Positions 7 through 23,897 of a DNA stretch of 64,000 bases are shown piece after piece. Numbering within the stretch: position 1 is the stretch's first letter; every line of letters begins with the position of its first letter. The position numbers and the translations under genes were made by a program. The DNA lies in IMG/VR virus record IMGVR_UViG_641201351_000001, positions 1-64,000 of that record. One strand, written 5' to 3'. The notes under the pieces were generated by a model. It worked only from the letters and a program-made list of their open reading frames with translations, was not told the origin of the DNA and searched no databases. The stretch is from a virus (lineage: Duplodnaviria; Caudoviricetes).

Positions 7-1938
7 TTACCCCTTCAAAAATTCCTCAATCTTTTTTATTCTATCTTCTAACTCATCAATTTTCTTTTTCTTTTCTTTTAAGGCTTCAACTAAGAGTGCT
101 ACAACAGCGTTGTAGTTTAACTGTAAATAACCATTCTGATCTACATCAACTGCCTCAGGTAGGACATTCTGAACCTCCTGAGCAATCAACCCGGCCAAAC
201 GCTTACCTCTCATTTCAAAGGTATAACCGGTGATTTGCCCGAGTTTTTCTAAAGCGTCTTGAATTGGTTCAAGGTTGGTCTTAAACCTAGCATCGGAGGT
301 TTGGTACAGAGTGCCTTGTATCCACACATCTCCACTTACTATTAGGATTCCATTAACATATGTAGTTGTAAGTGATGTTGTTCCTAAAACATTCAAGTTT
401 CCTTGCAATTGTGTATTTCCGTTAACTAATAAGTCCTTATGGACTGTCAAATAATCTTCAATAACAAACTGGTCTGCACAAAATGTAAACTTTTTTACGC
501 CGTTTTTGTTGTTTTCTACTTTAAAACATCCGCTGGAAGAGTCAGCTAAAATGTCAACATAAGTAGAGTTTTCTACATGTGTGTTAAAAATTGATTTATA
601 AGAATCTGAAGATAACGTAATGTAGGAAAAAGAACTTTGTCTTTTGGTACCAAAAACTACTGATTGACCTCCACTTAAGGCATTTTTATAAGTAAAATCT
701 GTTCTTTTCAAGGAACCATCTTTATTTCCTCTTAAAAATAGTCCAAACGAGTAATCCTCTAAGCCGGAAGAGGATTTTTGTAAATTTTTAAAGCCCTCCT
801 TTTCCGCATTCAAAATAAGGACATGTTGATAGCTTTCCTTATAAAACTGTTCAAATAATAGTGAAGGATAGGTTGAGATAAAAGTTCTGTTAAATCCTTC
901 ACCTTTTTCTAACAAAATAGATGAACCATCATCGTTTCTTATTCTTAATTGACTTTTATTTTCAAAATTAATTGCTGCAAACTGTTGGTCCTTGCTTGTC
1001 TTTAAAAGTAGGAAAGAGTCATTTTTGCTTATCTTATAAAGACCAATTTTATTTCTTCCTAATTTTATTTCTCTGAACTCTTGCGCATAGAATATATCCT
1101 CTCCAAGATAACCATCTGCTTTTGTATTCAAAATTTCATCATAAGATGTTAGCGCTAAATTTTCGCCAACCTCTTCTTTAGCTTGGAGAAAAGGATATTT
1201 ATCTGTATCAACTTCTGTAAATAGGGTTATTTTTTTGTCTAACTTTAGTAGCTTATCTTGTTTATTTTGGGGCGAATATTCATGTGTAAAGTCAAATACT
1301 AAATCTGGTCTAAAGGGAAAGTTTTCGTCTTTATTTCTGTCTAATAAGTAGTCTTTGTAAGTTGGGTTTTCTGATAAGTGAAAAATATACTTTCTTGAAA
1401 TTTCGTCTTCGTTTTTATCGTTTAATATTTCCCAAAATTTTTCATCGTAGTTAAAGACATCATAACTTGACCTATAAAGGTCATAAGAAGGAAATTCAAC
1501 AAATCTTTTGTAAAGTGCATCTGGTTCTTTTTTTAGGTAAGAACCAGTATAGGTTAGATTTATAAGAGAAGAGTTGTAAGATTGACCAAAAGATTTTTTA
1601 TCAGAAAATTGAGGTATTGTTGGCTTAAATATAAACCTTTCGTTTTCTCTGTTTTCTTCATCAAATTTTTTATTTAATTTTGCAACAAAAATAGAATATC
1701 CAGCGCTTAAACGCTTTACAAGTATGTAATCTCCAGGTTCAACTGGTATTTCGTTTCTAAAAGGATGAAGTATCGTTATTATTTGTTGTGGTAAGTCTGT
1801 TCTTACACCTAATAGATAAAAATCTGGTTTTCCTTCCTCTGCTTCTTTATAATCAACAACCCTAGTAACTAATACTGGAAAATAGTCTTCACTTGAAGTA
1901 TATAGCGATAAAGTTTCTTTCGTGAAGTCTATAAGCAT
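7..1938 (-). CDS. Tail spike/fiber protein with beta-helix and C-terminal intramolecular chaperone (peptidase S74) domain
   Basis: C-terminal SDARFKTNLEPI...AGLIAQEVQNVLPEAV...LNYNAVVALLVEALKE plus coiled coil is a typical S74 autocleavage domain. It is preceded by VNGNTQLQGNLNVLG beta-solenoid repeats. Confidence 0.8.
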   Translation of the reverse strand: MLIDFTKETLSLYTSSEDYFPVLVTRVVDYKEAEEGKPDFYLLGVRTDLPQQIITILHPFRNEIPVEPGDYILVKRLSAGYSIFVAKLNKKFDEENRENERFIFKPTIPQFSDKKSFGQSYNSSLINLTYTGSYLKKEPDALYKRFVEFPSYDLYRSSYDVFNYDEKFWEILNDKNEDEISRKYIFHLSENPTYKDYLLDRNKDENFPFRPDLVFDFTHEYSPQNKQDKLLKLDKKITLFTEVDTDKYPFLQAKEEVGENLALTSYDEILNTKADGYLGEDIFYAQEFREIKLGRNKIGLYKISKNDSFLLLKTSKDQQFAAINFENKSQLRIRNDDGSSILLEKGEGFNRTFISTYPSLLFEQFYKESYQHVLILNAEKEGFKNLQKSSSGLEDYSFGLFLRGNKDGSLKRTDFTYKNALSGGQSVVFGTKRQSSFSYITLSSDSYKSIFNTHVENSTYVDILADSSSGCFKVENNKNGVKKFTFCADQFVIEDYLTVHKDLLVNGNTQLQGNLNVLGTTSLTTTYVNGILIVSGDVWIQGTLYQTSDARFKTNLEPIQDALEKLGQITGYTFEMRGKRLAGLIAQEVQNVLPEAVDVDQNGYLQLNYNAVVALLVEALKEKKKKIDELEDRIKKIEEFLKG

Positions 1939-1940
1939 AT

Positions 1941-4586
1941 TTAGTTAAAGGTTTCCTCGGAAGTAACTACTGAATTTCCTATCAAGGAGAAAGGAGTTAC
2001 TGCTACTCTAGGAGCATAAATTATTATAGCGTCTTTATTTTTGATTTTCACTTTTTTTATGTTTGCGGCAAGATTTTCTCCGTTATTCATATCAACAATA
2101 TAAATATCGCTAGTACCTTGTTTTGCTTTTACGCCAATACCGTAAATATACGGTTTGTAAATTTTGTAGCTTGTAGCTTTTTCATCAAAAGACAAAAGCA
2201 CATCGTGTATTGTTCTATAAAGCTCTTTTGGGGAATTTAGTTGTGGAACTACATACTTATCTCTTGCTTTTAATTCATAAATTATAGGAATTACTTCTTT
2301 CGAAGATTTGTCATAAACAAACATTCTTACATCTCCGATACCTCCATACTCCTCTTTTATGTAAAGAATGTATCTATTAGTACCAACTTCATATGCTTTA
2401 TATCTTATTTCTTGTATTTCTAGTCTTCTTTTTACCGATGAAGTTGAGTATTCTTTGTTATTGTATCTGTCATTCAAGTAGGTTTCTAAAATTTTTAAAA
2501 ATATCTTTTCAAATGCTCCTCCTTTGTATTTCATCCATACACTAATATTTGAAGATATTTGACTTAACTCTTTAATCATTAGCGAAGAAGTGATGTACAA
2601 AGAATGAAGATCTTTATAAAAATTCTTTATTAAACCACTATTTAGCAGCGTATTTATAATATCTCTATCCGTTAACGACCCATCAAAGAACTTATTTGCT
2701 AAAGTAAAGCTCAACTCAGCTATTCTATAAAGATGATCAAAGTCATCCAAATCATTTGGCGCTAAATTATTTGCCTCAGAAAAAATTTCATTTGGACTTT
2801 TTTCTCTTACTGTAAAGTCAAAAACTGGACCACTTTTATTTCTGTTATATTCATAATCAATTAGAGAAAGATACCTTAGGGATGCTGAAAGTAAATTTCT
2901 TCGCAAAATGTAAAAACTATTAGGTCCAGCTTGAAAAATTTCTTCATCTATTAACCTTTGTTCATCTTTAGGAAATAGGAGCTTTAATCCAAATAAATCC
3001 TTAATTAATTTATCTACTTCCTGAAAGGAGTGTTCGCCTTCAAAAACCTTGGGATATAATTGCTTCAAAAACAGGAAATCTAAAAAAGACAATCCAAGCG
3101 TGGGCGGTCTTGATATCATATCGTATAATACTGAATTTATGCTCTCTTTTACTAGAGTTTTGAAGTCTAAAGAATCTACAATGTTTGATATTTTTTTGGC
3201 TCTTTTTCCTGTTTTTTTCAAAAATCTTTTGTATTCCTCAATTTTATCAATTTCGTCCGCATCAAAAACCAAAAAATGTGTAACTACAAACGAAGATTCA
3301 AAGCCGTGAGAAAACGGCATGTAAACAAAAGTCTTTTCTATACTTTTCTTTTCTACTTCCTCATCTGAATATATCCTTGCTTTTATTGAAAACTCATCAG
3401 ATATTTTGTCGTAATTTAAGACTCTCAATATAGGTAAAAAATAGTTTTGTTGACCCTTATACTTATAATCAGTTTTCGGAACATATAAATTCTCCTTTCC
3501 TGGAAAGTATTTGGACACCTCAACAACAACATAGGTTCCATTTTCTAGTTCATAGTTAAAAACTCCGTTTCCAGCATATACAGAACTCTTAATTTTTTCC
3601 TTTATTCCCAAATCCTTTTTAACCAAGTTAAACAAAAATTCGGGATAAGAAACAAAAAACGCAAACATTCCTTTGTCAACAAACTCTTCGTGTATGGGAA
3701 CAGATATAAAATTACCTTTTCTAGAATTTAGAATTTTTTGAATTTGGCTTAGTAAAAGTTCCATTGGTAATTGATATTTCTTCTTTTTTTGCAAATCCTT
3801 TTCTTTTAAGAATTGTTCAGAAATTTCGTATAACTCATAAAACATTGATAACGATCTTCTTGAAAATTCAAATTGTCTTAGCGCATCATATATGTCGTAT
3901 AAAAACTTTCCTACGAAAAAACCTTCAGATTTCCGTTTTCCTAAAGCATCTTTAAATCGCTTATATATAGAATTGCCGTTTATTATTTGTTTTGATAAAT
4001 TTGACAAGCTTACACCAGAAGACAAAGATTTCCTTAAATCTCCTTTTAGAGAAACAAGTGATAAAAGTGTTTTTAAATAATCTGTCAGATCTTGAGCTGA
4101 ATTTAAAAACTTTACTTCTTCTTTGCTCAAATTTGTCTTTCCTCTAATTTCTAAAACTGCTTTCTCTACAAGCTCTCTAAGGTTTTCAGTCGAATGTTCT
4201 AAAAATTCTATACTTGATTCCCATAAATCTTCTATATCTACTTCATCACTACTCTCTAGAAATGAAGAAAGCTTTAACGCTGATTGAATTGTTTTTATCT
4301 CGCTTTTAAGTTGAGTATTTATTTGTCTTTTTGTTTGTGTTTTTTTCGTGTTTTCCTTAACGGAACTCTGTTGCGGCATTGGAGAAAGCAAGACGTTTTG
4401 ATTTGTAAAAGAAACATCTACTAATTCCCAATCTTCATCTAACAAAACACCTTTCCAACCGGGAGAAGATTCTGGGGGAAAAAACATTCCTGTAGGCTTA
4501 TGAAGCAAAATATAGCCTGGTGGAACCTTTTTAACCACCTGTTTTCCATCTTCTCTGATTTTTATAAACTCATTAGAGTTCTCCAT
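1941..4586 (-). CDS. Large hypothetical protein (881 aa), possibly virion-associated
   Basis: Long ORF coupled between the portal and the tail spike; no motif recognised. Confidence 0.6.
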   Translation of the reverse strand: MENSNEFIKIREDGKQVVKKVPPGYILLHKPTGMFFPPESSPGWKGVLLDEDWELVDVSFTNQNVLLSPMPQQSSVKENTKKTQTKRQINTQLKSEIKTIQSALKLSSFLESSDEVDIEDLWESSIEFLEHSTENLRELVEKAVLEIRGKTNLSKEEVKFLNSAQDLTDYLKTLLSLVSLKGDLRKSLSSGVSLSNLSKQIINGNSIYKRFKDALGKRKSEGFFVGKFLYDIYDALRQFEFSRRSLSMFYELYEISEQFLKEKDLQKKKKYQLPMELLLSQIQKILNSRKGNFISVPIHEEFVDKGMFAFFVSYPEFLFNLVKKDLGIKEKIKSSVYAGNGVFNYELENGTYVVVEVSKYFPGKENLYVPKTDYKYKGQQNYFLPILRVLNYDKISDEFSIKARIYSDEEVEKKSIEKTFVYMPFSHGFESSFVVTHFLVFDADEIDKIEEYKRFLKKTGKRAKKISNIVDSLDFKTLVKESINSVLYDMISRPPTLGLSFLDFLFLKQLYPKVFEGEHSFQEVDKLIKDLFGLKLLFPKDEQRLIDEEIFQAGPNSFYILRRNLLSASLRYLSLIDYEYNRNKSGPVFDFTVREKSPNEIFSEANNLAPNDLDDFDHLYRIAELSFTLANKFFDGSLTDRDIINTLLNSGLIKNFYKDLHSLYITSSLMIKELSQISSNISVWMKYKGGAFEKIFLKILETYLNDRYNNKEYSTSSVKRRLEIQEIRYKAYEVGTNRYILYIKEEYGGIGDVRMFVYDKSSKEVIPIIYELKARDKYVVPQLNSPKELYRTIHDVLLSFDEKATSYKIYKPYIYGIGVKAKQGTSDIYIVDMNNGENLAANIKKVKIKNKDAIIIYAPRVAVTPFSLIGNSVVTSEETFN

Positions 4587-7410
4587 ACTTTTTCTTAATA
4601 AACTCTTTTACATAATCTCTTGCTTCTTGCCTTTCTAGTTGTTCACCTAGAAGAGATTTAAAAACAAAGCTCTTCATAAATATATTATCAACTTCTTCAG
4701 ATATACTTTCTACTAAGTTCATATAATCATCAAAGTTTTCTGCTACAAAAACAAAGTTTATATTTTTGTTTTGGCCGAAAGAAGAAATTAATGAGCCGAT
4801 AGTACCAAGCAAACGAATTTTTTCAAATTCGCAATCAATGCTAATTGTTTCGATAAAGTATGACAGCGATGCGATCACTTCTCTGATTTTGTCGTAGCTA
4901 AAACTCAATAACCAATGAACCATATGATTGGTTTCAAAATTTTCTACTTGCACACCCAATAGCATTTCTAAAACGCCTTTGCAAGAGGCAACTAAGCTAT
5001 TAATTTTTTCTACACCAAGTTCTTCTATCAAAGAAAATAGAAGGAACAATGAGTGAGGTGTAGCTTTGTAGCTGTCAACAAGACTAAATAGTTCTCCTTC
5101 TACGAAAAACTTCTTCTTTAGCAAATTAACGAGATTTTCTAACTCTTCATATGGAGCTACTAATAATTTTTCTACATCATCCAAATAATCAAAGCTGTCA
5201 TAGTTTTTCTTCTTTATTGAATCGCCAAGTTGAGAATATTTTAATAGGTCAATATCTTTAAAATTCTTAAACTCCAACCAATCAAAAACAATCTCTAGCT
5301 TGGTTGGCTTTTTCGTAGTACAACTTAATAGTTCATCTAATCTCGTAAATTTTTCTACAGAATTTATCGGAGAACAAACTGAAAGGTTTGCAAAAACATA
5401 TCTTTTGTCTTTATCTGAATAAAACTCAACTTTAGGCACAGTATGACAATCAAAGTGTGTTGCTATTAATCCAAAAGTTTCTCTATGGTCTAATGAATTT
5501 TTCCCCAATAGCCTAAGAACAATGTCTTTTTCTGTTGCGTAGATTGTTTCATCTTCAACTAGAGAATTATACTTAAAACTCAAAATGTCTTTTGCGCTTA
5601 CTTCAACATCTGTTTGGCTGTTATTTTCTATAAACTCACTTACAGAGTCCAAACCTACAGATTTCAAAACTCTTGTAAGAAGTTCTTTTTCTTTTAGATA
5701 ATTATCATCGTTAGTAAGTTCTATTACCTGTTTGAGATTTTCCGAGGCGTTAGCGTCTAAAGATTTAAATAAATTTCTAAGAACTTCTAATCCAGCATTT
5801 TTTTGCTCAGAGGGAACACTACTATTTTCGTCTACTCCTCCTCCTTGTTGGGAAGGCTGATCTGCCATTGCCTGTGCAAGCTGAGGAGGCATAGCGCCTT
5901 GTTGCGCTTTAGCCTGTTCGTCCTCAGGCTTCCAATTTCTTAAACCAGAGAAAGGTACATCTCCCCAAGGTACAGGTTCTAAGCCCTTTTCCATTCTCGC
6001 CTCATTTATTGACCTGAATCCTGTATTTAATTGTCCTTGAATTATATTCCACCAATCTCTTTCTTTTTCTAAATCGTCTTCTTTAAACCACAATTTTATG
6101 TCTTTTTCATTTCTAAACTCACTAACTACCTCATCAAAACCCTTAGAAATAGTAGCCATAAGAGGTTCTAGACCCTTTGCTTTGGTTAGTGAAGCCATTA
6201 CTTCTGCTGTTGCTTTATTTGAACCTTCAAGAATACCAACATCTTGAGGAGATACTTGATATACAGCGCAAATTTTTCTAGCAACAAATTCTGCAAGTTC
6301 TTTAAACTGCATATCTCTTCTTTTTCCTTTAAAGTCTATCCAGGTAAATTTTCCACCAGAGAGAATAGGAACTTGCGTATAATCGCCCATCATTATTGCT
6401 TGAAGCTGTCTTTGTATAGATTCTAGCTGTTCTCTAGATAGTTGTGGATAAATATCTCCTTCTTTATAAGAAGGAGGTTCAATAGCTAAAATACCTTCTG
6501 GTATGCTTCCTCCCTTTCTGTAATAGTCTAGGTTTCCTTTGTCTATAAAAATATCTGAAAGTATTACTTTATAAAGAATTTCAATTGGCGGCAAGGAGTA
6601 GCCATACATGTAAACATCTGGTGTAAGGTTTTGTCTAAATAAAACAACATCTCGCTTATCAAAGTGGGCAACAATAGCTCCATCTACTTCTTGGACATAG
6701 CCAACCACAATTCCTGTGTCTTCACTTAAAATCGGTTTTATTGTCGTGCCATCTACTGGTGTTATAGCAACTAAATTGCCCTGTTCATCCCTAATTTTTA
6801 CTATTGCTCCTCTATCTATTGTCAAGATATCATCTAACACCATTCCAAGAAGGTATTCCCAACTATTTACCTCTGAAAAATAAGGATCTGGTCTTTCTAA
6901 AAATTCCAATATATTTCTAGCATCTCTTATTCTCTTTAAATAATAGTTCACATGTTTATCCTCTATATGTTTGTATATTTCCAGCTCTTTACTAGTAAGT
7001 TTTTTTGGTATTTCACTAACTTTAATAAGCTTGCTATCGTTGTTAAAACGATACTTTCTGAAAAGATTTATTAGAAAGAAAGCATCTGGATCACTAATTG
7101 AAGGAAGATACATCAAACTTTCTGGTGAGTATTCAAACAGGTTAAACTTAAAAGGAGGTTCTTGATGATTATAAGGAACTATGATTTTTTCCTTTTTTAA
7201 TACCTGATTTTTTCTAAAAATAATAATCGAATAAACTACTGTGCTATTCCAAGCTAGCGCTCTATATGTCAGTAAAGGCTTAAATCCTGGATAATCTTTT
7301 CCCCTAGAAAGAGAATCTACATTGGCCTTTATATTTGAACTAAAACTCGGCCTCTTTTGCTCGTTTGCATTTACTATAAATCCCTTGATGATGTTTTCCA
7401 AGCTTTTCAT
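4573..7410 (-). CDS. Portal protein with long C-terminal extension
   Basis: HK97/Twort-like portal motifs: LERPDPY, DDILTIDRG, PVDGTTIK, YGYSLPPIE, RDMQFKEL, ICAVYQVSPQDVG, SINEARMEKGLEPVPWGD. GGGAG RBS. Confidence 0.88.
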   Translation of the reverse strand: MKSLENIIKGFIVNANEQKRPSFSSNIKANVDSLSRGKDYPGFKPLLTYRALAWNSTVVYSIIIFRKNQVLKKEKIIVPYNHQEPPFKFNLFEYSPESLMYLPSISDPDAFFLINLFRKYRFNNDSKLIKVSEIPKKLTSKELEIYKHIEDKHVNYYLKRIRDARNILEFLERPDPYFSEVNSWEYLLGMVLDDILTIDRGAIVKIRDEQGNLVAITPVDGTTIKPILSEDTGIVVGYVQEVDGAIVAHFDKRDVVLFRQNLTPDVYMYGYSLPPIEILYKVILSDIFIDKGNLDYYRKGGSIPEGILAIEPPSYKEGDIYPQLSREQLESIQRQLQAIMMGDYTQVPILSGGKFTWIDFKGKRRDMQFKELAEFVARKICAVYQVSPQDVGILEGSNKATAEVMASLTKAKGLEPLMATISKGFDEVVSEFRNEKDIKLWFKEDDLEKERDWWNIIQGQLNTGFRSINEARMEKGLEPVPWGDVPFSGLRNWKPEDEQAKAQQGAMPPQLAQAMADQPSQQGGGVDENSSVPSEQKNAGLEVLRNLFKSLDANASENLKQVIELTNDDNYLKEKELLTRVLKSVGLDSVSEFIENNSQTDVEVSAKDILSFKYNSLVEDETIYATEKDIVLRLLGKNSLDHRETFGLIATHFDCHTVPKVEFYSDKDKRYVFANLSVCSPINSVEKFTRLDELLSCTTKKPTKLEIVFDWLEFKNFKDIDLLKYSQLGDSIKKKNYDSFDYLDDVEKLLVAPYEELENLVNLLKKKFFVEGELFSLVDSYKATPHSLFLLFSLIEELGVEKINSLVASCKGVLEMLLGVQVENFETNHMVHWLLSFSYDKIREVIASLSYFIETISIDCEFEKIRLLGTIGSLISSFGQNKNINFVFVAENFDDYMNLVESISEEVDNIFMKSFVFKSLLGEQLERQEARDYVKEFIKKKYGEL

Positions 7411-8800: not shown

Positions 8801-9412
8801 CTAAATCAGGAACTCATCTCCGAGTTCCTTTGCTTCATCATTATACACCAAATTCTCTTCATCTGAGTTGCTATTTACTGTTTTGCCTTCAGCACCAGCA
8901 AGTTCTACGAAAACATAATCAGCGATTATAGAAAACTTATTTTTGTAATTTTCCAATATGCCGTCAATCATTAGTTTCTTTCCAATCATACTTTTATCTA
9001 CATGTATTCCTCTGCTGTTGAAAAGCGTTACAAAAATTCTAGTAGACTTTTTTCTTGTAGTTTCAATTAGTAGCCTCTTACGATTGCCATTATCATAAAC
9101 TCCAACCAAAGTACCAGAAATTGTAGCAAACCTTTTATCTTTTTGGGGATATGAAGAAAATGAAATTGATGTTGCATAAATATAGTCCTCCTTTTCACCA
9201 TTTGACAACATCCCGTACACTAAAGCGTACAAAGAAGCTTTTTGATTCAAGCTACTTACAACCTTTTCCTTAACTATAGAAAAGTCCATTGGAACTAATA
9301 CTGGAAAAACATTTTTCTCAACTTCAACCATAAGTACATCATTTCTAGCATCTACAAGCTTTCCAGCTAACAAAGTGCTGTTTTTGTCGTACTTAAACTT
9401 AAATGTGTCCAC
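8801..9412 (-). CDS. ssb: Single-stranded DNA-binding protein with two tandem OB folds
   Basis: Two repeats of [L/I]xGxLV...hhhGxL...hhA OB pattern and an acidic tail DEAKELGDEFLI. Start likely GTG 9412 after AAAGGGGG (ORF track: 9451). Confidence 0.6.
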   Translation of the reverse strand: MDTFKFKYDKNSTLLAGKLVDARNDVLMVEVEKNVFPVLVPMDFSIVKEKVVSSLNQKASLYALVYGMLSNGEKEDYIYATSISFSSYPQKDKRFATISGTLVGVYDNGNRKRLLIETTRKKSTRIFVTLFNSRGIHVDKSMIGKKLMIDGILENYKNKFSIIADYVFVELAGAEGKTVNSNSDEENLVYNDEAKELGDEFLI

Positions 9413-9920
9413 TAGAACCAAACCCCCTTTCTCCCCTTTCTGTGTTGGCATATTTATTTAAAAATTCTTCCTCACTTACTTCAACCATTTCAAAAAATGA
9501 CCTACTATCATATCCAATTAACACCAACTGTGCCACAGCAACATCATTCCTAATGTTAAATATTCCTGTACTATAAAATTTTAGTCCAACTTTTATTGGA
9601 CCACGATATGAGCTATCAATCACCCCATGAAACACATCTACTCCAGACTTGAAGAAATTGCCGCTCCTACCAAATATAACTCCGTGAATACCTTTGGGTA
9701 ATGCAATTTTATATGGAGTAGTAACAAAGACATAAGAACCAGGATAAAGAACAAGAAGACTTACCTCATCATTAGAAACCTTTTTAATACGAATTAATTT
9801 TTCGTCTTTAATTTCAACAGTTGAAACATCAGGAAACAAATCAATACCAGCATTTTCCAAAATGTTAACCTTCAAATCCTTGACCGATTTATTTAGCTTA
9901 ATGTAGGGGATTTTGGTCAT
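9399..9920 (-). CDS. dut: dUTPase (trimeric)
   Basis: AGIDL, GRSG, GVIDSSYRGPI, AQLV, RGERGFGSSG. Start ATG 9920 after GGAGGTGGAG. Confidence 0.93.
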   Translation of the reverse strand: MTKIPYIKLNKSVKDLKVNILENAGIDLFPDVSTVEIKDEKLIRIKKVSNDEVSLLVLYPGSYVFVTTPYKIALPKGIHGVIFGRSGNFFKSGVDVFHGVIDSSYRGPIKVGLKFYSTGIFNIRNDVAVAQLVLIGYDSRSFFEMVEVSEEEFLNKYANTERGERGFGSSGHI

Positions 9921-9954: not shown

Positions 9955-10782
9955 TCATATGTCAAGCCCCTTAAGCTTCCTCAGCCTCTTTACCTTGCTT
10001 TCAAGCTCCTCTAGCTTGGTTTCACTTAATTCTTCTTTATTAATTATCGTAAAGTTTGTAAAGTCTATGTGTTTAACATCATCTTCAGAAAGCTTTACAG
10101 CGTTAAGTTGGTGTCTTAAAAAGGCTCGCCAAGTGATAGGAACAATCTTAGCAACAAAAGAAGCTATTGCCTTTGCAACTTCTCTAGTTTCTTTTTGCGT
10201 GTGATCGTCTAGTCTAAGTCTTAAAAAGTTCATTAGGTTTCTCAAGTCCTGCTTGAAAAAGAACATTGTGTATGTACCTAAAGGCAAAAGGCTTCTCGCA
10301 ACTTCTCTAGCCAAACCCTCATCTAACATTTCTTGGTAGTTTTTGTAAACATATTTATAAGTTTCATCAAAAACTTTTATTGTCTTAAGTAGTTTTTCTG
10401 TATTGTTTTCTTCAGCGGAGGATTGTTTGTTTGCTTTGGAGTTTGTTCTAAATTCACTAGGAACATAAAACTCATCTTCAAGTTTTACATATCTACCACT
10501 TATTTCATTAAAGCTAGCTGTTCTGTGTCTAAAAATTTGCCTTGCTACAAAGATAGGTACTTTAAGGTGAAAAACAAATTCTACCATTTCAAAGGGCGAC
10601 ATATGTTCATTGCGCATTAGGTAATCTATTAACGCTTCATCCTTAGACTTTCCTTTAAAGTTGTAAGAAACTCTAGCAGCCTGAACAATTAGCTGATCGC
10701 TTCCCATGTAGTCAACAAGACGAACAAAACCCTTATCAAGCACCTTTATTTCTCTTGGGAACTCTCCAAAACCCTCCTGCAT
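9955..10782 (-). CDS. thyX: Flavin-dependent thymidylate synthase
   Basis: HMSPFE, RQIFRHRTASFNEISGRY (RHRx7S motif), LRLDDHTQKE. Confidence 0.95.
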   Translation of the reverse strand: MQEGFGEFPREIKVLDKGFVRLVDYMGSDQLIVQAARVSYNFKGKSKDEALIDYLMRNEHMSPFEMVEFVFHLKVPIFVARQIFRHRTASFNEISGRYVKLEDEFYVPSEFRTNSKANKQSSAEENNTEKLLKTIKVFDETYKYVYKNYQEMLDEGLAREVARSLLPLGTYTMFFFKQDLRNLMNFLRLRLDDHTQKETREVAKAIASFVAKIVPITWRAFLRHQLNAVKLSEDDVKHIDFTNFTIINKEELSETKLEELESKVKRLRKLKGLDI

Positions 10783-10815: not shown

Positions 10816-11331
10816 TCAGAAAATCTTTCTTTCGTTTGAAGCACTTATGGAAATTTTATGTTTTATTGAGTAGTGCAACATTTCTAAAATCTCATAAAGA
10901 CCTGAAAGGTAATTTAAATAAGCCTTATATAAGGCGATTTTTTTCTTTAAGTTTCTATATTCTTCGTTTATCTCAACTAGCTTTTCTACTTCAGTATTTG
11001 TAATTTTCTTTTCTGATGATAAAGAAGTCTTTGTTTGTATAAAAAGATTGGCATACATAGATTCTTCTTCGTTATCTTTTATTGCCAAAATTCCTTCAAT
11101 TAGAGTCTTTTTGTAATTTATATGCTCTAACCAAGAAAGAACAGAAAATAACAACTCATTTAGTTCTTCGGGAGAAAAATCGTTTATAACAGAAAAGTCC
11201 AAAAAATATGTTTCTTCATTAAATGGTATCTTTAATGTTTGTGCAACATCTTTTATGCTGATTTTATAAACATCAGGAATTTCCTTAAAAATTGTTTTGT
11301 AAGGGCTTTCTAGTCTTCTTTGGCTATCCAT
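10816..11331 (-). CDS. UvsY-like recombination mediator
   Basis: C-terminal TNTEVEKLVEINEEY...YLSGLYEILEMLHYSIKHKI resembles T4 UvsY (..CSGALDAIKSRGFAIKHI). Lies in the RecA operon. Confidence 0.5.
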   Translation of the reverse strand: MDSQRRLESPYKTIFKEIPDVYKISIKDVAQTLKIPFNEETYFLDFSVINDFSPEELNELLFSVLSWLEHINYKKTLIEGILAIKDNEEESMYANLFIQTKTSLSSEKKITNTEVEKLVEINEEYRNLKKKIALYKAYLNYLSGLYEILEMLHYSIKHKISISASNERKIF

Positions 11332-11783
11332 ACTAGTAGCCTATCAAAAAGCTTTCTGTTTGTCAATACGTCCTCTAGGGATACGCTCTTTAAAATTTCG
11401 TCTGCAATTTTTTCTCTTCTAAGGTCTTCTTTTTTATTAAAGAATTCTTTGATTAAGTTGAAAACAAGTAAATAAACTATATTTTCGTTGCCAAACCATT
11501 TTTTATATGTCATTGAAAATCCAAAATCGTGTCTTTCTTTGTGATGATAATCACACAATGGTATCGTTGAGAAATCTGTAAATCTTTTATAATTTCTATA
11601 ACAATAGGAAAGGTTTTCATGATGAGCAATTGTTTCCGTTTTTGAAAAACTTCTTTGGCCCAAATAGCACGCAATACATTCAAAATTATGAATATACTCT
11701 AAATATTCCTTTTCTAGTTGCCCAAAAACATCACTATTAAGATATTCTCTCATTGAATTACAGTAATAAGAAAAATCACTCAT
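11310..11783 (-). CDS. Ref/DUF968-like HNH nuclease
   Basis: YLEYIHNFECIAC...IAHH...DFSTIPLCDYHHKERH: Zn-binding CxxC...HH...PLCxxHH signature. Confidence 0.7.
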   Translation of the reverse strand: MSDFSYYCNSMREYLNSDVFGQLEKEYLEYIHNFECIACYLGQRSFSKTETIAHHENLSYCYRNYKRFTDFSTIPLCDYHHKERHDFGFSMTYKKWFGNENIVYLLVFNLIKEFFNKKEDLRREKIADEILKSVSLEDVLTNRKLFDRLLVWIAKED

Positions 11784-12795
11784 CTTCCTCCTCTTCCTCC
11801 TCTTGAGATAAACTTACAGATTTAAGATTTGCAATCTTTTCTCTAATTTTTTGGTCAACAAGCTCTGCAAAGGGTTTGTTATTCTTTATTTCCTCAATTA
11901 ATTGAATTGCGCCGTGAAATGTTTTTTCTTCTCCAGTTATTTGTTCTTTATACCAAGCACCTGATTTCTTAACAAGCCCAAGTTGGCTCAATATTTCTGG
12001 ATAATCTATAGTATAACTTCCATCGTAAAACAACAAGAATTTAGCCTTTCTCATTGGAGGAGCGAACTTGTTTTTCTCGACTTTTACATGAACTTCATCT
12101 CCAATTTCTCCATCTTCGTCTTTTATCGGCTTTTTGCGCATATTAAGTCTAAGAGAGGAGAAAAATTTTAAAGCTCTACCACCTGGAGTGGTTTCTGGAT
12201 TTCCATAAACTCCTATTTTTTCACGAATTTGGTTAATAAACATTATTGTTGCTTTATTTTGCCTTATGATAGGCATTAATTTTGAAAGTGCCATTGAAAG
12301 AATTCTAGCCCTCACACCAACCAGGCTATCTCCGTAATCAGCGTTATTTTGAGATACAGTAGGCGGAGCTACAATTGAATCGTAAACGACATATTTAACT
12401 CCTTGGTTTATTAGAAACTCTAATTTTTCGAGGCTTTCTTCCAAGGAATTTGCCTCAATTAAAAGCAGTTCATCAAGATTTACACCAAGAGTTTCAGCCC
12501 AAATCGGATCAAAAGAGTTTTCGGCATCAATAAAAGCACATATTTTATTCGCTTTTTGCATTTGAGAAATAGTTATTAGGCTAAAAGTAGTTTTACCAGA
12601 AGACTCTTGACCGTATACTTCAATAATTTTTCCCATCGGAATTCCACCAATTCCTAGCGCCAAATCTACTGTCAATATACCTGTAGAAACTATTTCCTCT
12701 TTAGTTTGCTTTAATTCTTGACCTGTATAAATTTCTTCTTTACTAAACTTCTTCGCATAAGAAGAAATGATTTGCTTTATTTTTTCGGTGTTCAC
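11776..12795 (-). CDS. recA: RecA recombinase
   Basis: STGILTVDLALGIGGIPMGKIIEVYGQESSGKTT, FIDAE, INQIREKIGVYGNPETTPGGRALKF, KNKFAPP. Confidence 0.97.
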   Translation of the reverse strand: MNTEKIKQIISSYAKKFSKEEIYTGQELKQTKEEIVSTGILTVDLALGIGGIPMGKIIEVYGQESSGKTTFSLITISQMQKANKICAFIDAENSFDPIWAETLGVNLDELLLIEANSLEESLEKLEFLINQGVKYVVYDSIVAPPTVSQNNADYGDSLVGVRARILSMALSKLMPIIRQNKATIMFINQIREKIGVYGNPETTPGGRALKFFSSLRLNMRKKPIKDEDGEIGDEVHVKVEKNKFAPPMRKAKFLLFYDGSYTIDYPEILSQLGLVKKSGAWYKEQITGEEKTFHGAIQLIEEIKNNKPFAELVDQKIREKIANLKSVSLSQEEEEEEDE

Positions 12796-13367
12796 TCAGC
12801 ACCTCCCCTTTTTCCTAAAGCGTACTCCTTTGCTTGCCTGTAAAGCTTATCGCCGATTATCCTAAGGTTTGCCAAAGCCTCTTGTATCGGTTTGGAGTTG
12901 CGATTCTTTAGTTCTTCTTCCGTTGCAAATATTTGATTTTTGAAAAACCAAATATACAAACCGATCGAATGGTTTGCAGCAGCTCTTCTTATTGCATCTG
13001 TTTCGGCAGACTTAGGATCTGCCTTAATAAATTGTTTTTTTAACTTTTCTAAATCATTATCAAAAACCAAGTAAGAAGAACCAGTTCCTGTCATTGTTTT
13101 ACCCATGATTGTAAGTTCAGCCTTTGCCATATGTCCAACAATTAAAAATCCGCTTTTATCAGTAGTTTCTACAGTTATTGGAGTTATCTCTGTTTTTAGT
13201 TCCCAATCACCAGGAATCATTGTGTTCAAGCGATGAATGATGTATCTAACATCAAGATATGGAACTATCAAATAAGAACCATTTTTTAGCTTTTTATCTA
13301 CACGGAAAAGAATTGCTTGGTCTGGAAAAGGCCTCATTAACTCAATTCTGATCTCCTTTTCAGTCAT
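12792..13367 (-). CDS. Rad52/Sak/DdrA-like single-strand annealing protein
   Basis: LMRPFP...PYLDVRYIIHRLNTMIPGDW...KSAETDAIRRAA..HSIGLYIW is the Rad52_Rad22 pattern. Confidence 0.8.
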   Translation of the reverse strand: MTEKEIRIELMRPFPDQAILFRVDKKLKNGSYLIVPYLDVRYIIHRLNTMIPGDWELKTEITPITVETTDKSGFLIVGHMAKAELTIMGKTMTGTGSSYLVFDNDLEKLKKQFIKADPKSAETDAIRRAAANHSIGLYIWFFKNQIFATEEELKNRNSKPIQEALANLRIIGDKLYRQAKEYALGKRGGAE

Positions 13368-13386
13368 GTCCTACCTCGCTCTTATC

Positions 13387-13416
13387 AGATTACAACAAAC
13401 TCCTGCCCCTTGTCAA
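13387..13416 (-). promoter_or_regulatory. Sigma70-type promoter (TTGACA-18-TAATCT) for the recombination operon
   Basis: TGTCAA at 13411-13416 and AGATTA at 13387-13392 on the + strand; GAGGT SD before ATG 13367. Confidence 0.6.
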
Positions 13417-14756
13417 GACTTGCCTTTTTTGTCATCTGTCTTTTTAGTACTACCAAACTTAATCTCTTCTACATTAAAATCAAAAGTTTTTGTATCGTAT
13501 GAAATGACCGCAGTAAAAAGTGGACCATTTCTTTGTTTTTTAACATAAAAATTGATATACTTTCTTGTTGAAACAATCTTTTCTCCGTTGTTTAGCGTTA
13601 TCGAATCAATCTCTTCCTCTTTTTTGTTAGACATTAATGCGATTAGAGAAGCGGCTTGCTCAATATCTCCACTTTCCTTTAGGTCGTCAATATTAGGTTC
13701 TTCATTTAATCTTCTTGACAACTGAGAAATTTCAACAATTGCAACATCCAATTCAATAGCTAATGTTTTTAGTCTTTGCGCAATTGAGCCAATTTCTAAA
13801 TGTCTATTTCCAGAAAACTTAATGTTTGACATAAGTTGTAAGTAATCAATGAAGACAATTTTTGTGCCATTTTCATATACACTTCTTCTAATAATTGACT
13901 CTATGTTTTCTATAGATCCATCATGAGTAGAAGTAAAATAAAGGGGCCAACTGTTCATTTTTTCAACTGTTATTTGCGCCAATTTCTTTTCCTCATCGGT
14001 TAGTTCTTTTTTGAATATTTTTGACGCAGGTATCTTTGAAATCATTGAAATAAGCCTACCAAAAATCTGAAATTTTGTCATTTCCATTGAAATCAAATGA
14101 ACAGGTATATTTTCTAAAGCTTGCTTGTAAGCGACATGCAGAGATAAAAGCGTTTTTCCGATACCAGGTCTTGCACCTATAACAACAACATTTCCAGGTA
14201 CAAAATCATAAATATAATCGTCAAGGTTCATATTTCCAAACCTAAAGCCAAACCTATAAGTGTCTTTTCTGTTAAGCTCATTAAAAAATTCCCTAGACAT
14301 GTCTTCAACAGATAAAATATCAACATTTTTTATTCCGCTTCTAGAAATTTCTTCCTGGATTTCTTTAAGTTTCGAGTAAACTTCTGAAGTTGATAAAAAT
14401 TTTTTTATTGACAATTCTTTTAACTGAGGAGAAATTTTTCTAAGAACACTTTTTTCTTTTAGCCAATTCGCATATTTAACTGTAAGATTAAGCCCCTTTT
14501 CATCTGGAGTAATTTCATCATAAAGTTCAACATCTTCTGCTTTAACTAGACCAAGTTGCACAATATCAGACAATAAAGATGCTTCTGGTTCTTGATTATG
14601 GTTTTTAACATACTCAAAAGCTTTTCCTAGATACACAAAATCATCTTCTGAAAGAAAGATAACCTTTTGTATGAAATCTTTGTGTTTAATAAGGCTAAAA
14701 ACAATTTCTAACTCAATAAGATAAAGATTTTCGTCAAAAAGTTCATTTTGGTCCAT
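13413..14756 (-). CDS. dnaB: Replicative DNA helicase DnaB-like
   Basis: IGARPGIGKT Walker A, SMEM, IDYLQLM, ISQLSR, LKESGDIEQAA, KQRNGP. Confidence 0.93.
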   Translation of the reverse strand: MDQNELFDENLYLIELEIVFSLIKHKDFIQKVIFLSEDDFVYLGKAFEYVKNHNQEPEASLLSDIVQLGLVKAEDVELYDEITPDEKGLNLTVKYANWLKEKSVLRKISPQLKELSIKKFLSTSEVYSKLKEIQEEISRSGIKNVDILSVEDMSREFFNELNRKDTYRFGFRFGNMNLDDYIYDFVPGNVVVIGARPGIGKTLLSLHVAYKQALENIPVHLISMEMTKFQIFGRLISMISKIPASKIFKKELTDEEKKLAQITVEKMNSWPLYFTSTHDGSIENIESIIRRSVYENGTKIVFIDYLQLMSNIKFSGNRHLEIGSIAQRLKTLAIELDVAIVEISQLSRRLNEEPNIDDLKESGDIEQAASLIALMSNKKEEEIDSITLNNGEKIVSTRKYINFYVKKQRNGPLFTAVISYDTKTFDFNVEEIKFGSTKKTDDKKGKS

Positions 14757-15059: not shown

Positions 15060-15089
15060 AGCTTACCACAACTTTGGGGTGTCTGTCAA
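15060..15089 (-). promoter_or_regulatory. Sigma70-type promoter TTGACA-18-(TGG)TAAGCT
   Basis: TGTCAA at 15084-15089 and AGCTTA at 15060-15065 on the + strand. Confidence 0.6.
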
Positions 15090-15463: not shown

Positions 15464-16576
15464 GTGATGCAGATGTACAACTACACACAAGAAGACATTT
15501 CCTTCATTGAGTTAATAGAGGATGTAAACTTTCACACAGAAAACTTCTACGGTAGCTTTGAGGATTACCTAATACTTCCAACATTTCTTGAAAAGGAAAT
15601 CTCTAGAAAACAGACAAATATAATGCAAGAAATTATTGATATTAAAGGAAGTAAAAGGCTTACAAAACCAGTTATCTCTTCACCAATGAGCTTTTTTGGT
15701 AAGAGGTTTGGTGAAAGATTAGTAGAGAGAAACTTTATTTACTCAATTCCACGAATTAATAAGCCAATAGAGGAGAGAATAGAAATTTACAAAGAACTGA
15801 AATCTAAATATAACTCTACAATTATCTTTTCTGTTGGGGCAAAGGAAGAAATTACAAATGAGATAATAGATAATTCAGACATCTTATTACTTGATATAGC
15901 TCACGGTGCCTCTAAGCATTCTGTAAATTTCTTATACTCTCTAAGCAGACTTGGTATTAATTCTGGTGTGATGGTAGGAAATATTGGGTCAATAAATGGG
16001 ATGTTGTATTTATTGTACTTTGCGGCAAAATTTGGCTTTAAAAACATTTACATCAGAAGTGGAATAGGATCAGGAAGCGCTTGCACAACAAGACTCAATA
16101 CTGGAGTTGGATTTCCACAATTAGACTTAATGAAAGATTTACGAAACTTTTTAAACAACTTAAATTCTTCTAGACTAGGAAAATACATAGAAAATCTTTC
16201 TGACACAAAAGTATATCTTGTTTCTGATGGAGGAATAAAAAATTATGGAGATATAGCAAAGGCTTTGATATTTTCAGATTTAGTAATGGGCGGAAAAATC
16301 TTTGCTTCAAGAGAAGTAGATACTTTTAATAACGAAAAGGTGTTTTATTATGGTATGGCATCACAATACGCAAAACAAAATAAAGAAAATGTTGAAGGTG
16401 AAGGTTTTGAAATTAAAAATCCTCCACATTTAGAAGAAATACTACTAGGAATAGAAGACGGATTGAGGTCTGCTCTTACTTACACTAACTCAACAAACCT
16501 AGAAGAATTTAGAAGAAAGGCCAAACTAATAAGAGTAAGCTCTTCTACACTAAAAGAAACATATGTTGGATTTTAA
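15464..16576 (+). CDS. GMP reductase / IMP dehydrogenase family
   Basis: LDIAHG, GIGSGSACTTR (catalytic Cys), SDGGIKNYGDIAKAL, YYGMAS, VEG. Leaderless TAAAAT-7-GTG. Confidence 0.88.
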   Translation: MMQMYNYTQEDISFIELIEDVNFHTENFYGSFEDYLILPTFLEKEISRKQTNIMQEIIDIKGSKRLTKPVISSPMSFFGKRFGERLVERNFIYSIPRINKPIEERIEIYKELKSKYNSTIIFSVGAKEEITNEIIDNSDILLLDIAHGASKHSVNFLYSLSRLGINSGVMVGNIGSINGMLYLLYFAAKFGFKNIYIRSGIGSGSACTTRLNTGVGFPQLDLMKDLRNFLNNLNSSRLGKYIENLSDTKVYLVSDGGIKNYGDIAKALIFSDLVMGGKIFASREVDTFNNEKVFYYGMASQYAKQNKENVEGEGFEIKNPPHLEEILLGIEDGLRSALTYTNSTNLEEFRRKAKLIRVSSSTLKETYVGF

Positions 16577-18837: not shown

Positions 18838-19214
18838 CTTGCTCCCCCTCCTTTCAAAATCTTATCAATTCCAAAAGAATACTCTTTATTATACTGCTCT
18901 CTTGCCTTTTCTTTGAGTTCGAAAAATTCATTTACTATTACTTTTATCTCTTCTGTAACAAACTTCAATTCCTCCAAAAGTTCCTTGTGCTCTTTTATTG
19001 TTTTAGCTTGATTTATTTTATCTCTTATTGGTTTTAGGAAAAACAAATCTATATATTCAAACATATCATCCTCTGGGTTGCTTTTAATGTTAATTATGGA
19101 GGTATCAAATTCATAGAAACATGTGGATATTATTTTCTTTTTGCATAAAAACATTATGTGATTAGAAATCGCAACAATCACAGACTTTATATCTGATAAG
19201 GTAACCTCTTGCAT
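18834..19214 (-). CDS. Hypothetical protein
   Basis: 126-aa ORF overlapping both neighbours. Confidence 0.55.
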   Translation of the reverse strand: MQEVTLSDIKSVIVAISNHIMFLCKKKIISTCFYEFDTSIINIKSNPEDDMFEYIDLFFLKPIRDKINQAKTIKEHKELLEELKFVTEEIKVIVNEFFELKEKAREQYNKEYSFGIDKILKGGGAS

Positions 19215-19960
19215 AAACTCCTCACTTTACATTCTACGCAATTCCTTGTTTTTTGCGGATAAATGCCTGTAGTAAGCGATTTCCTAATCATATTAAGCTG
19301 TGAATACAAATATTGTTTGTACTCAAGATTGTAATCGTGTCTATATATTTTCCTTTTCAGGATATCTATAGAAAGAACTATAAACTCTACATTAAACTTT
19401 TCGTTAAGTATTTCTCTGTATATGATGTACGGTATTTTTTGGCTTTCTGAGTTTCTTCTATTTTTTATGTCTATCAAAACATAATTTCCTCTTTTTGTGA
19501 GTGCAACAAAGTCTGGTATTATTTCAAACACAAGCTCTGGAAATTCTCTTATTTTTCCTTCTATTTTCTCCTCCCAAACCAAAACTTTCTCTACTTGTAT
19601 AGAATTTCTTATTTGAAGCAGGAAATCAAAAGAATTTATAAATAAGTTCTTTTCTAGCTCATAAAGGTTGTCTTTTTCTTCAATAATATCCTTTTCGTAC
19701 AACACTTTTACAAAGTCATGTTTTTTGTCTAAAAGAAATTTGAATTCATCTAAATCTTCACTAGAATCAAACTTTCCCAAAATATCTCTGTACATATAGT
19801 AAAAGGATGCGTGAAAAAATCTACCCAAGACAGCACTTCTGGTTGGAATTTTCTTAGGTATATTGTTATCTTTCAAATAAAACTTTGTTATCTGAAAATT
19901 CCTTGGGCAAAAGACATAGGATTTTACTAACGATGGTGATATTTTAAAAGGTAAATTCAC
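19187..19960 (-). CDS. Cas4/AddB-like PD-(D/E)xK nuclease
   Basis: ISPSLVKSYVFCPR, G.FFH, IPDFV...IDIK, CVECKVRSLC (1+3 Cys Fe-S staple). Confidence 0.75.
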   Translation of the reverse strand: MNLPFKISPSLVKSYVFCPRNFQITKFYLKDNNIPKKIPTRSAVLGRFFHASFYYMYRDILGKFDSSEDLDEFKFLLDKKHDFVKVLYEKDIIEEKDNLYELEKNLFINSFDFLLQIRNSIQVEKVLVWEEKIEGKIREFPELVFEIIPDFVALTKRGNYVLIDIKNRRNSESQKIPYIIYREILNEKFNVEFIVLSIDILKRKIYRHDYNLEYKQYLYSQLNMIRKSLTTGIYPQKTRNCVECKVRSLCKRLPYQI

Positions 19961-22301: not shown

Positions 22302-23015
22302 TCAGTTGTCAATAGTCATTTTAAATTTATAGAACATAGACTTTACCTCATCGTAACTAAGTCCAAAATTCTCAAAAACTTTATGTTTTCCTTTGAAAAA
22401 GTCGCTAGCAATATTGTATTTTATTGCTTCTTCTGGTGTGATGTAAATATCTTTATGCGCTCCTTTTCCAATTACCTTCTTTTTGAGCCCAATCTTCTTT
22501 ATAAACTCGTTTTCAAAGATAGTCTTCAATACTTTGTATTGTTTATCCAAATTTTCAACAATATCTTTTGAACCAATGGGTTGAGGATGATTTACAAGAA
22601 AATCATGCATAATAAAGAACGAGTTAGATGTAACAAACCTATTAGACTCTTTAGCGGAAAGAAAAATGTAAACACCAGCACTTGCAATAATAGAATTAGC
22701 TACAAAAATTACATCTCTTTCAAACCCCTTAATTAAATTGATTACTCTCATAGCTTGCATCACATCTCCGCCAAAGGTTGAAAACTGTACAATAATTGGA
22801 ATCTTATTTAGTCCAATTCCAAACTCATCTCCTTTAACTACTTCAAACTTGGAAAGCTCATGAGAAACAAAATAAATACTATCAACAAACTCATTAACAG
22901 AAAATTCATCTATGTCTGCACTAAAGTTAATCTCAACAAAGTTATCATAAATTACACTTTGAGGCCTTTGGTTTTCAGAACCACAGTTCAGAATCTTTTT
23001 GTGTAGCACTTTCAT
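22302..23015 (-). CDS. clpP: ClpP-like protease
   Basis: STFGGDV, IASAG (Ser), IMHD (His), DIYITPEEAIKYNIA (Asp). Start ATG 23015 after GAGGAGG. Confidence 0.75.
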   Translation of the reverse strand: MKVLHKKILNCGSENQRPQSVIYDNFVEINFSADIDEFSVNEFVDSIYFVSHELSKFEVVKGDEFGIGLNKIPIIVQFSTFGGDVMQAMRVINLIKGFERDVIFVANSIIASAGVYIFLSAKESNRFVTSNSFFIMHDFLVNHPQPIGSKDIVENLDKQYKVLKTIFENEFIKKIGLKKKVIGKGAHKDIYITPEEAIKYNIASDFFKGKHKVFENFGLSYDEVKSMFYKFKMTIDN

Positions 23016-23862: not shown

Positions 23863-23897
23863 CTGTATCCTCCCTAATGTGCTGTTTTTCAAACATA

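Follow-up and report, generated by a model that had tools for sequence, protein, structure and literature searches.

Four overlapping genes on the minus strand occupy positions 10816 to 13416 of the window, the 64-kb stretch of viral DNA analysed here, and together they probably make up the apparatus for homologous recombination of a Thermus myophage of the phiYS40 type. In order along the minus strand, they encode a Rad52-family single-strand annealing protein of 191 amino acids (aa; 12792–13367), a bacterial-type RecA (11776–12795, 339 aa), a zinc-finger HNH nuclease of the DUF968/RecA_dep_nuc (P1 Ref) type (11310–11783, 157 aa), and a helical protein of the UvsY family (10816–11331, 171 aa). 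A sequence-only reading of the window had reported four overlapping open reading frames (ORFs) at these positions; they do exist there, and all of them are conserved at 34–58% protein identity in distant metagenomic relatives. Successive ORFs overlap by 4, 8, and 22 nucleotides (nt). The first overlap is a GTGA in which the GTG start of recA meets the stop codon of the upstream gene, the second is ATGAGTGA, and the third joins the HNH and UvsY-like genes. Purine runs resembling ribosome-binding sites precede the starts of the second (RecA) and third (HNH) ORFs. We hold the family assignments and a role in recombination with high confidence.

The source of the window is a phage of the phiYS40/TMA type, and its virus record runs to 152,372 bases, of which the window takes up the first 64 kb. 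DNA identity over 10816–13416 was 96% to Thermus phage TMA and 89% to both phage YS40_Isch and the partial genome of phage Tt72; the recA record of Tt72 was 90.8% identical to recA of the window. With a G+C content of about 32%, the phage is AT-rich among Thermus viruses. The four genes correspond to TMA_013 to TMA_010 in the RefSeq record of TMA, where the first is labelled 'Erf-like ssDNA annealing protein', the second 'UvsX-like recombinase', and the third and fourth 'hypothetical protein'. In the Tt72 record, the RecA homologue is annotated as recA, and the counterparts of the HNH and UvsY-like genes are labelled 'similar to hypothetical protein'.

The RecA and Rad52-family assignments, both proposed earlier from the sequence, were upheld by profile searches. 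The 339-aa protein is a full-length bacterial-type RecA: it matched Pfam RecA (PF00154) with 266 bits over positions 3–258 of 262, possesses the Walker A motif GQESSGKT and an acidic C-terminal tail, and hit 22 PDB sequences at E ≤ 1e-20, all of which were named RecA. Its score against TIGR02012 (284.3 bits) was below the equivalog cut-off (325.3), indicating a divergent RecA. The 191-aa protein scored 23.8 bits against Pfam Rad52_Rad22 (PF04098), above the cut-off of 20.3, and its PHROG family is labelled Erf-like. The annealase orthologue in one distant metagenomic lineage (L013, described below) scored 32.5 bits against the same profile; that in another (L010, 40% identical to the window protein) had no Pfam Rad52 match at E ≤ 0.05, and the 191-aa protein had no NCBIfam match at E ≤ 0.1. 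Single-sequence phmmer searches of the PDB sequences with the 157-, 171-, and 191-aa proteins returned nothing meaningful. Lopes et al. (2010) list YS40 as one of four phages pairing a Rad51-like with a Rad52-like gene, and the window phage has the same combination of a Rad52/Sak-type annealase with a RecA-like protein. The RecA of Tt72, an orthologue of the window RecA, has been purified and is moderately thermostable (Stefanska et al. 2014, J Biotechnol, as described in PMC9324360). Both the pairing in YS40 and the Tt72 RecA are thus already published and are not new.

The 157-aa ORF possesses the CxxC..HH..PLCxxHH pattern that had been noticed in it, as C36-x2-C39, H54-H55, and P75-L76-C77-x2-H80-H81. 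The associated assignment to the Ref/DUF968 type of HNH nucleases found independent support from profiles, a protein language model, the predicted fold, and orthologues. A phmmer/HMMER pass over 1.84 billion representatives recovered 29 homologues; after one of these (P0029, 738 aa with nine matched stretches) was dropped, the other 28 were aligned with the query and two close relatives (n = 31). C36, H54, H55, C77, H81, and H85 are invariant in this alignment, and C39, E56, D70, P75, L76, H80, R84, and G88 are conserved in at least 90% of sequences. When the 31 family members were scanned one by one (E ≤ 0.01), 22 matched DUF968, 20 matched RecA_dep_nuc, and 11 matched HNHc_6. All of the 30 nearest clusters in the ESM Atlas carry DUF968 and/or RecA_dep_nuc. 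Compared with the PDB, the family profile had a sole match below E 1, which was P1 Ref (3plw, E 0.0043). BLASTP between the window protein and P1 Ref placed the CIAC, HH, and PLCxxHH motifs in register (E 2e-4 for this single comparison). Two of the distant orthologues were scored individually: that in L013 reached 29.6 bits against RecA_dep_nuc (PF16786; cut-off 26.9), and that in L010 reached 24.0 bits against DUF968. The best named PHROG was phrog_1588, to which PHROG assigns no function (E 6e-9); the Ref-like phrog_2321 was matched at just E 0.087.

When the 157-aa HNH protein and its 171-aa UvsY-like neighbour served as tblastn queries, the YS40/TMA/T72 group alone was recovered from 50,697 phage records, and neither protein had a match in NCBIfam. 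A word-based protein search yielded close relatives alone, two for the HNH protein and five for the UvsY-like protein, or eight with an alignment as the query.

The AlphaFold2 (AF2) model of the HNH protein (pLDDT 91.7) consists of an HNH core at about residues 24–88 and a C-terminal helical domain at 89–157. The core includes the beta-beta-alpha elements of the His-Me finger as strands 52–55 and 73–76 and helix 78–87. Among Foldseek results for the model, P1 Ref was ranked first. Comparison with Ref by VIA-align, which bears on the fold proposed for 11310–11783, superposed 88 of the 110 ordered Ref residues at a root-mean-square deviation of 3.5 Å (Z 6.5), with the next row at Z 4.2. Residue H81 aligns with H134 of P1 Ref, a Zn ligand whose loss together with H153 is reported to disable Ref. 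The C-x2-C...H...C-x2-H-H-x3-H spacing equals that of the residues mutated in Gp16 of phage PhiNM1, where C145, C148, C181, and H184 belong to the zinc finger and H157, H185, and H189 to the nuclease centre. Because the spacing is that of Gp16 and H81 aligns with H134, the nuclease looks catalytically competent, as far as this can be predicted from its residues.

P1 Ref, the DUF968 nucleases, and the window protein thus have in common a zinc-finger His-Me (HNH) core and a genetic tie to recombination functions. P1 Ref is reported to cut RecA-bound DNA only, and Gp16 to bind RecA, which enhances its cleavage. In the DUF968 proteins described in the literature, an Orf/NinB mediator domain is joined to the HNH domain; Gp16 and the classic DUF968 proteins carry such a NinB/Orf-like domain, whereas the window protein is without one. 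It has instead the C-terminal helical domain of about 70 residues, in which a conserved R143/F146/D147/L150 motif is found in part of the family. A further difference lies in the recombinase at hand, as P1 and PhiNM1 use the RecA of the host, whereas the HNH gene in the window overlaps a recA encoded by the phage itself.

Several observations weigh against equating the 157-aa protein with Ref. It scored below the Pfam cut-offs for both RecA_dep_nuc (20.4 versus 26.9 bits, E 6e-4) and DUF968 (17.1 versus 27.8 bits, E 0.006), and the top-ranking Foldseek hit to P1 Ref had an E of 0.67, which is not significant on its own. In both the BLASTP and family-profile alignments, His153 of P1 Ref had no sequence-aligned counterpart. 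Residues 1–76 of P1 Ref form a basic (25 of 76 residues), disordered arm that is reported to be required for DNA binding. The window protein has no such arm: its net charge is −3, its pI is 6.1, no basic segment is present, and its 23 N-terminal residues are acidic and helical. The genomic setting of distant relatives also counts on this side. No recombinase was recognised beside the HNH gene in six of eight distant loci, PHROG scans of the neighbouring genes included, and where isolated phages (lambdoid ones and others) have a relative of the HNH gene, it is a YdfU/DUF968 gene, the match covering no recA. Taken together with the findings above, stimulation of the window nuclease by RecA, or dependence on it, is in our estimate close to an even call, slightly on the doubtful side.

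The 171-aa protein had been said to end like T4 UvsY. Its C-terminal part indeed matches UvsY profiles, but the likeness extends over the whole UvsY chain rather than the end alone, and the assignment as UvsY-like held up in independent profile, fold, and orthologue comparisons. The protein matched phrog_231 (UvsY) at E 1.7e-6 and Pfam UvsY (PF11056) at E 0.0067. Phrog_231 was matched by nine of nine family members (the window protein and eight relatives), and a relative with 65% identity has a precomputed PF11056 match. The orthologue in L013 scored 23.5 bits, above the Pfam cut-off of 22.8, over profile positions 27–121 of 128; the orthologue in L010 scored 17.3 bits, below it. Nine of the 30 nearest ESM Atlas clusters are in a set represented by a UvsY-named cluster, 19% of whose members carry PF11056. 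T4 UvsY was the sole sequence match of the family profile in the PDB. A MAFFT alignment rendered the 171-aa protein collinear with the whole of T4 UvsY, with W67, H70, K74, K75, K85, L139, G144, K157, and H158 in common.

The AF2 model of the 171-aa protein (pLDDT 88.4) shows a small extra N-terminal region followed by a long helical hairpin (helices 54–105 and 123–170). When the model of 10816–11331 was searched with Foldseek, the top ranks were all occupied by T4 UvsY chains (E from 0.016, probability 1.00, TM by target 0.62–0.75), and the first non-UvsY entry shown was at rank 19. VIA-align superposed 124 of 125 UvsY residues at 3.0 Å (Z 11.0). T4 UvsY (PDB 4zwq–4zwt) and the window protein are alike in the long helical hairpin and in their place within a recombination gene set. 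They differ in the extra N-terminal region of the latter, the structural alignment beginning at model residue 18, and identity between them is low (about 10% in structural alignments and 18% by MAFFT). The genetic surroundings differ as well. T4 UvsY partners UvsX, whereas the recombinase neighbouring the 171-aa protein is a bacterial-type RecA, and the replication genes of the window phage, which include DnaB and a polymerase reported to belong to family A of the DNA polymerases, are unlike the T4-type system. We consider it moderately probable that the UvsY-like protein acts as a mediator for RecA.

We examined the linkage of the four genes in metagenomic contigs. The scan identified two further distant lineages (L013 and L009–L012) with the same gene order, namely Rad52-family, RecA, HNH, UvsY-like, ThyX, dUTPase, and a 200-aa protein. 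Relative to their counterparts in the window, the proteins of L013 showed identities of 49% (Rad52-family), 58% (RecA), 40% (HNH), and 40% (UvsY-like); in L009–L012 they were 40%, 55%, 34%, and 39%, respectively. The sequence-only reading had described the cassette as a chimera assembled from several lineages. This was not borne out: the cassette is old and has been kept as a block at 34–58% protein identity. A recent chimera was rejected, since conservation of the block in distant relatives counts against it, as it does against a selfish homing gene.

Further out, among eight more distant HNH loci from IMG/VR (L014–L021), the end of recA overlaps the start of the HNH gene in two (L019 and L020), and the HNH proteins of both match phrog_1588, as the window protein does. 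Family profile hidden Markov models for the UvsY-like and Rad52-like proteins found no such gene in any of the eight loci. The pairing of recA with this HNH gene is recurrent yet not universal. In L020, recA is a single ORF of 1035 aa (1670–4777, plus strand) with similarity to RecA in three separate segments, a pattern as expected for a RecA with two inteins or other in-frame insertions. In L019, which is unrelated to the window, a 356-aa 'dehydrogenase' (phrog_9582; 5547–6617, plus strand) is encoded two genes past the recA–HNH pair. A 370-aa ORF of the window (15464–16576, plus strand) is likewise labelled 'dehydrogenase' in TMA, and its resemblance to IMP dehydrogenase/GMP reductase is recorded for Tt72.

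Closer relatives of the cassette were found in public sequencing data. DNA runs X1, X3, X7, and X9, from four studies, contained contigs 90–99% alike to parts of 10816–13416, so relatives with an intact cassette occur in other public data sets. An 18-kb contig in run X9 covers all four genes with about 246 differences, its insertions and deletions being all in-frame or compensating. No sequencing run had at least half of the words of the stretch, and runs labelled as RNA reached just 0.06–0.07.

The module is placed within a block of replication and nucleotide-metabolism genes, with dnaB on one side and thyX/dut on the other. A DnaB-like replicative helicase (13413–14756, minus strand; Pfam DnaB_C, 189.5 bits) is encoded directly upstream, and a ThyX thymidylate synthase (9955–10782, minus strand; Pfam Thy1, 198 bits) directly downstream. 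A terminase-associated HNH protein was also entertained as a label for the 157-aa protein and was rejected, as the terminase gene is about 40 kb away by the TMA annotation and the HNH gene lies inside the replication block.

A single TTGACA promoter had been proposed for the four genes. The TTGACA is present (13411–13416, minus strand) and can be read as part of a promoter-like TTGACA-N18-TAATCT (13387–13416, minus strand), which is 19 nt upstream of the ATG of the Rad52-family gene and overlaps the dnaB stop codon; the claim that it serves these four genes only was not supported. TTGACA alone is not enriched (54 matches versus 46.8 ± 6.1 in shuffled sequences), the putative −10 element TAATCT agrees with TATAAT at only three of six positions, and a promoter consensus scan did not list the site at 13387–13416. 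The composite TTGACA-N16-19-TAANCT occurs three times versus 0.5 expected, a count reached by one of 100 shuffles, and L013 has TTGACA-N17-TACTAT at the equivalent dnaB/rad52 junction despite divergence of the surrounding DNA. The enrichment of the composite and the counterpart in L013 favour a genuine promoter. A second copy, TTGACA-N18-TAAGCT (15060–15089, minus strand), is located in the divergent intergenic region that heads the minus-strand block (15036 downwards) and may be the main promoter of that block. At the other end of the cassette, thyX begins 33 nt past the fourth gene with its own GGGAGGAG ribosome-binding site, and no intergenic terminator-like hairpin was seen on this strand after the fourth gene. 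The short gap and the lack of a visible terminator make it likely that the transcription unit is longer than four genes, with thyX probably in the same transcript.

Other genes of the record with possible functions in recombination and repair were also considered. The UvsW-like helicase mentioned in the sequence-only reading was recovered as a superfamily 2 (SF2) helicase (ResIII/DEAD; 23898–25247, minus strand), recognised by domain matches and distantly UvsW-like: a one-to-one comparison with T4 UvsW gave E 2e-9, with 22% identity across 371 columns of the helicase core. The RuvC-like resolvase mentioned alongside it was not recovered. The whole 152,372-base record gave zero matches to RuvC (PF02075) at E ≤ 1 in a search confined to this family, other resolvase families not being searched; as a control, the same search was positive in 11 of 14 known genomes. 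The annotation of TMA, the 96%-identical phage, names no resolvase within 1–66 kb.

Two proteins of the PD-(D/E)XK nuclease family, identified by domain matches, are encoded on the minus strand of the replication block (22975–23901 and 19187–19960), and either could be involved in end processing or resolution. The former is labelled 'CRISPR/Cas system associated' in TMA, which suggests a Cas4-like protein. Downstream of the cassette, a 216-aa protein (8801–9451, minus strand) with no Pfam, NCBIfam, or named PHROG match possesses an acidic tail (eight acidic residues among the last 25) and has a counterpart at 29–33% identity downstream of the cassette in L010 and L013. It is a candidate for the single-stranded-DNA-binding protein (SSB) of the phage or for another partner of the recombination proteins. 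In the partial genome of Tt72 (L002, 7716–8858), the homologues of YS40 genes 16 and 17 are separated by a transposase gene of the IS605 OrfB type; the window and TMA have no gene at this place.

The explanation that we consider best overall, and reasonably likely, is a recombination module composed of a UvsY-like loader, RecA, an annealase, and an HNH nuclease that depends on a partner. The family assignments come from the analysis above, and the steps of the mechanism are modelled on the T4 and P1 paradigms; for the set as a whole, thermostability, RecA loading, and cleavage guided by RecA are presumed. The role of the UvsY-like protein would be to promote nucleation of the phage RecA on single-stranded DNA coated by SSB. 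By invading homologous duplex, RecA would initiate both the recombination-dependent replication of the 152-kb genome and its repair, at the growth temperature of the host. The Rad52-family protein would anneal complementary strands, either in second-end capture or in single-strand annealing. The substrate of the HNH enzyme would be DNA engaged in a RecA filament or D-loop, which it would nick or cleave much like P1 Ref, and this cleavage would yield new invading ends or 3′ primers, or process joint molecules.

Partner dependence is the best reading of the nuclease because it has no DNA-binding arm of its own and because its DUF968 relatives fuse the HNH domain to a mediator domain. Lacking the basic arm, the enzyme is expected to need a partner for access to DNA, which may be the RecA filament or the UvsY-like protein. 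The HNH and UvsY-like pair could be a two-gene counterpart of the NinB/Orf–HNH fusions of the DUF968 family. A more specific and distinctly tentative proposal, which we regard as rather unlikely, is that the two proteins form a split mediator–nuclease unit docking on the phage RecA filament: the UvsY-like protein would load RecA and recruit the nuclease, and a nick in the D-loop would prime replication.

The main alternative is that the HNH protein is a RecA-independent, structure-specific resolvase or debranching nuclease for Holliday junctions or D-loops, comparable to T4 endonuclease VII or lambda Rap/NinG, and that it stands beside RecA only as the finishing step of the pathway. Such a role is unfilled in this phage, given the absence of RuvC matches in the record and of a named resolvase in the corresponding 66 kb of TMA, although the two PD-(D/E)XK nucleases of the window could serve in resolution or processing. 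T4 endonuclease VII likewise belongs to the His-Me finger enzymes and appeared as a weak Foldseek row (rank 24, E 5.1), but P1 Ref, rather than endonuclease VII or NinG, was the best match by both profile and fold. DUF968 domains have been reported fused to, or adjoining, RusA and annealases, and the missing DNA-binding arm of Ref fits this alternative too. Set against these points, the overlapping recA–HNH pair in three separate lineages suggests more than neighbourhood in a pathway. We judge a RecA-independent resolvase to be unlikely.

Less likely still, and in our view improbable, is that the nuclease is aimed at the host: like P1 Ref and Gp16, it would exploit RecA filaments formed on damaged DNA of the host, breaking the chromosome and stopping host replication. 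Gp16 is reported to inhibit host growth and replication through RecA, P1 Ref to cut RecA-bound host DNA and to raise SOS, and the motif spacing of the window protein is the same as that of Gp16. However, translational coupling of the HNH gene to the phage recA, followed by a mediator-like gene, points to recombination of the phage itself.

A different objection concerns the 171-aa protein, whose likeness to UvsY might reflect coiled-coil composition and not shared function. Its Pfam UvsY score of 17.3 bits was under the cut-off, the match of the family profile to T4 UvsY in the PDB was weak (E 0.24), the Foldseek E of 0.016 counted as not significant, and pairwise BLASTP with T4 UvsY missed the expected register. 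Moreover, unrelated helical proteins tied with UvsY in VIA-align (AhlC, for example, at Z 10.9), so the fold alone does not discriminate. On the other hand, UvsY was the single sequence match in the PDB and took all top Foldseek rows, every one of the nine family members matched the UvsY PHROG, and one orthologue passed the Pfam cut-off over most of the profile. The residues in common with T4 UvsY include W67, H70, K74, K75, G144, K157, and H158, which are not heptad positions, and the gene lies two genes downstream of recA. We therefore regard a merely compositional likeness as quite improbable.

HNH homing endonuclease genes are often found in or beside the recombination and nucleotide-metabolism genes of large phages, and the insertions in the L020 recA can be taken as selfish elements targeting recA. 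Nevertheless, a selfish homing gene inserted between recA and the UvsY-like gene with no part in recombination is very improbable here, as the HNH gene keeps its position in all relatives examined, including those with protein identity as low as 34%, overlaps both neighbours, has no recognised extra DNA-binding module, and belongs to the DUF968/RecA_dep_nuc group.

All four proteins fall in known families; two aspects of the cassette go beyond what has been published. Assigning the two 'hypothetical' genes to the Ref-like and UvsY-like groups appears to be new, as does the conserved coupling of the HNH and UvsY-like genes to a phage-encoded bacterial-type RecA. A literature search returned nothing that connects YS40 with UvsY, Ref-like proteins, DUF968, or RecA_dep_nuc, nor any paper dealing with the HNH and UvsY-like genes next to recA, although supplements (e.g., Table S3 of Lopes et al. 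2010) may list the genes. The text of Lopes et al. (2010), supplementary tables aside, does not contain 'UvsY', nor do its 'ref' words concern the nuclease. In a survey of jumbo phages, UvsY is reported for the T4-like group only and RecA homologues as widespread. The presence of a UvsY-family protein beside a RecA of bacterial type, in a phage outside the T4-like group, extends the reach of the family beyond T4-type phages.

The module may also be of practical use. The RecA of Tt72 has been used for improving the specificity of PCR, and the Tt72 proteins tested so far are described as only moderately thermostable (PMC9324360). A matching mediator, and a nuclease targeted by RecA, both taken from one thermophilic phage, would be obvious candidates for use in isothermal amplification and in cutting guided by RecA at elevated temperature. 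If the HNH and UvsY-like proteins do form a split unit, the YS40 set would be a self-contained, heat-tolerant cutting system programmable with oligonucleotides.

A 2026 paper on Gp16 describes Ref-type RecA-dependent nucleases as still poorly characterised in their physiological role. Here, the gene of a Ref-type nuclease is translationally coupled to a phage recA; the two genes have stayed together through deep divergence, and the same pairing is found again in two viral contigs unrelated to the window. The cassette thus offers a clean genetic system for asking what Ref-type nucleases do in the recombination and replication of phages. Should the split-unit proposal be true, Ref-type nucleases would belong integrally to phage RecA systems and co-evolve with them, and would not be accessories hijacking the host RecA.

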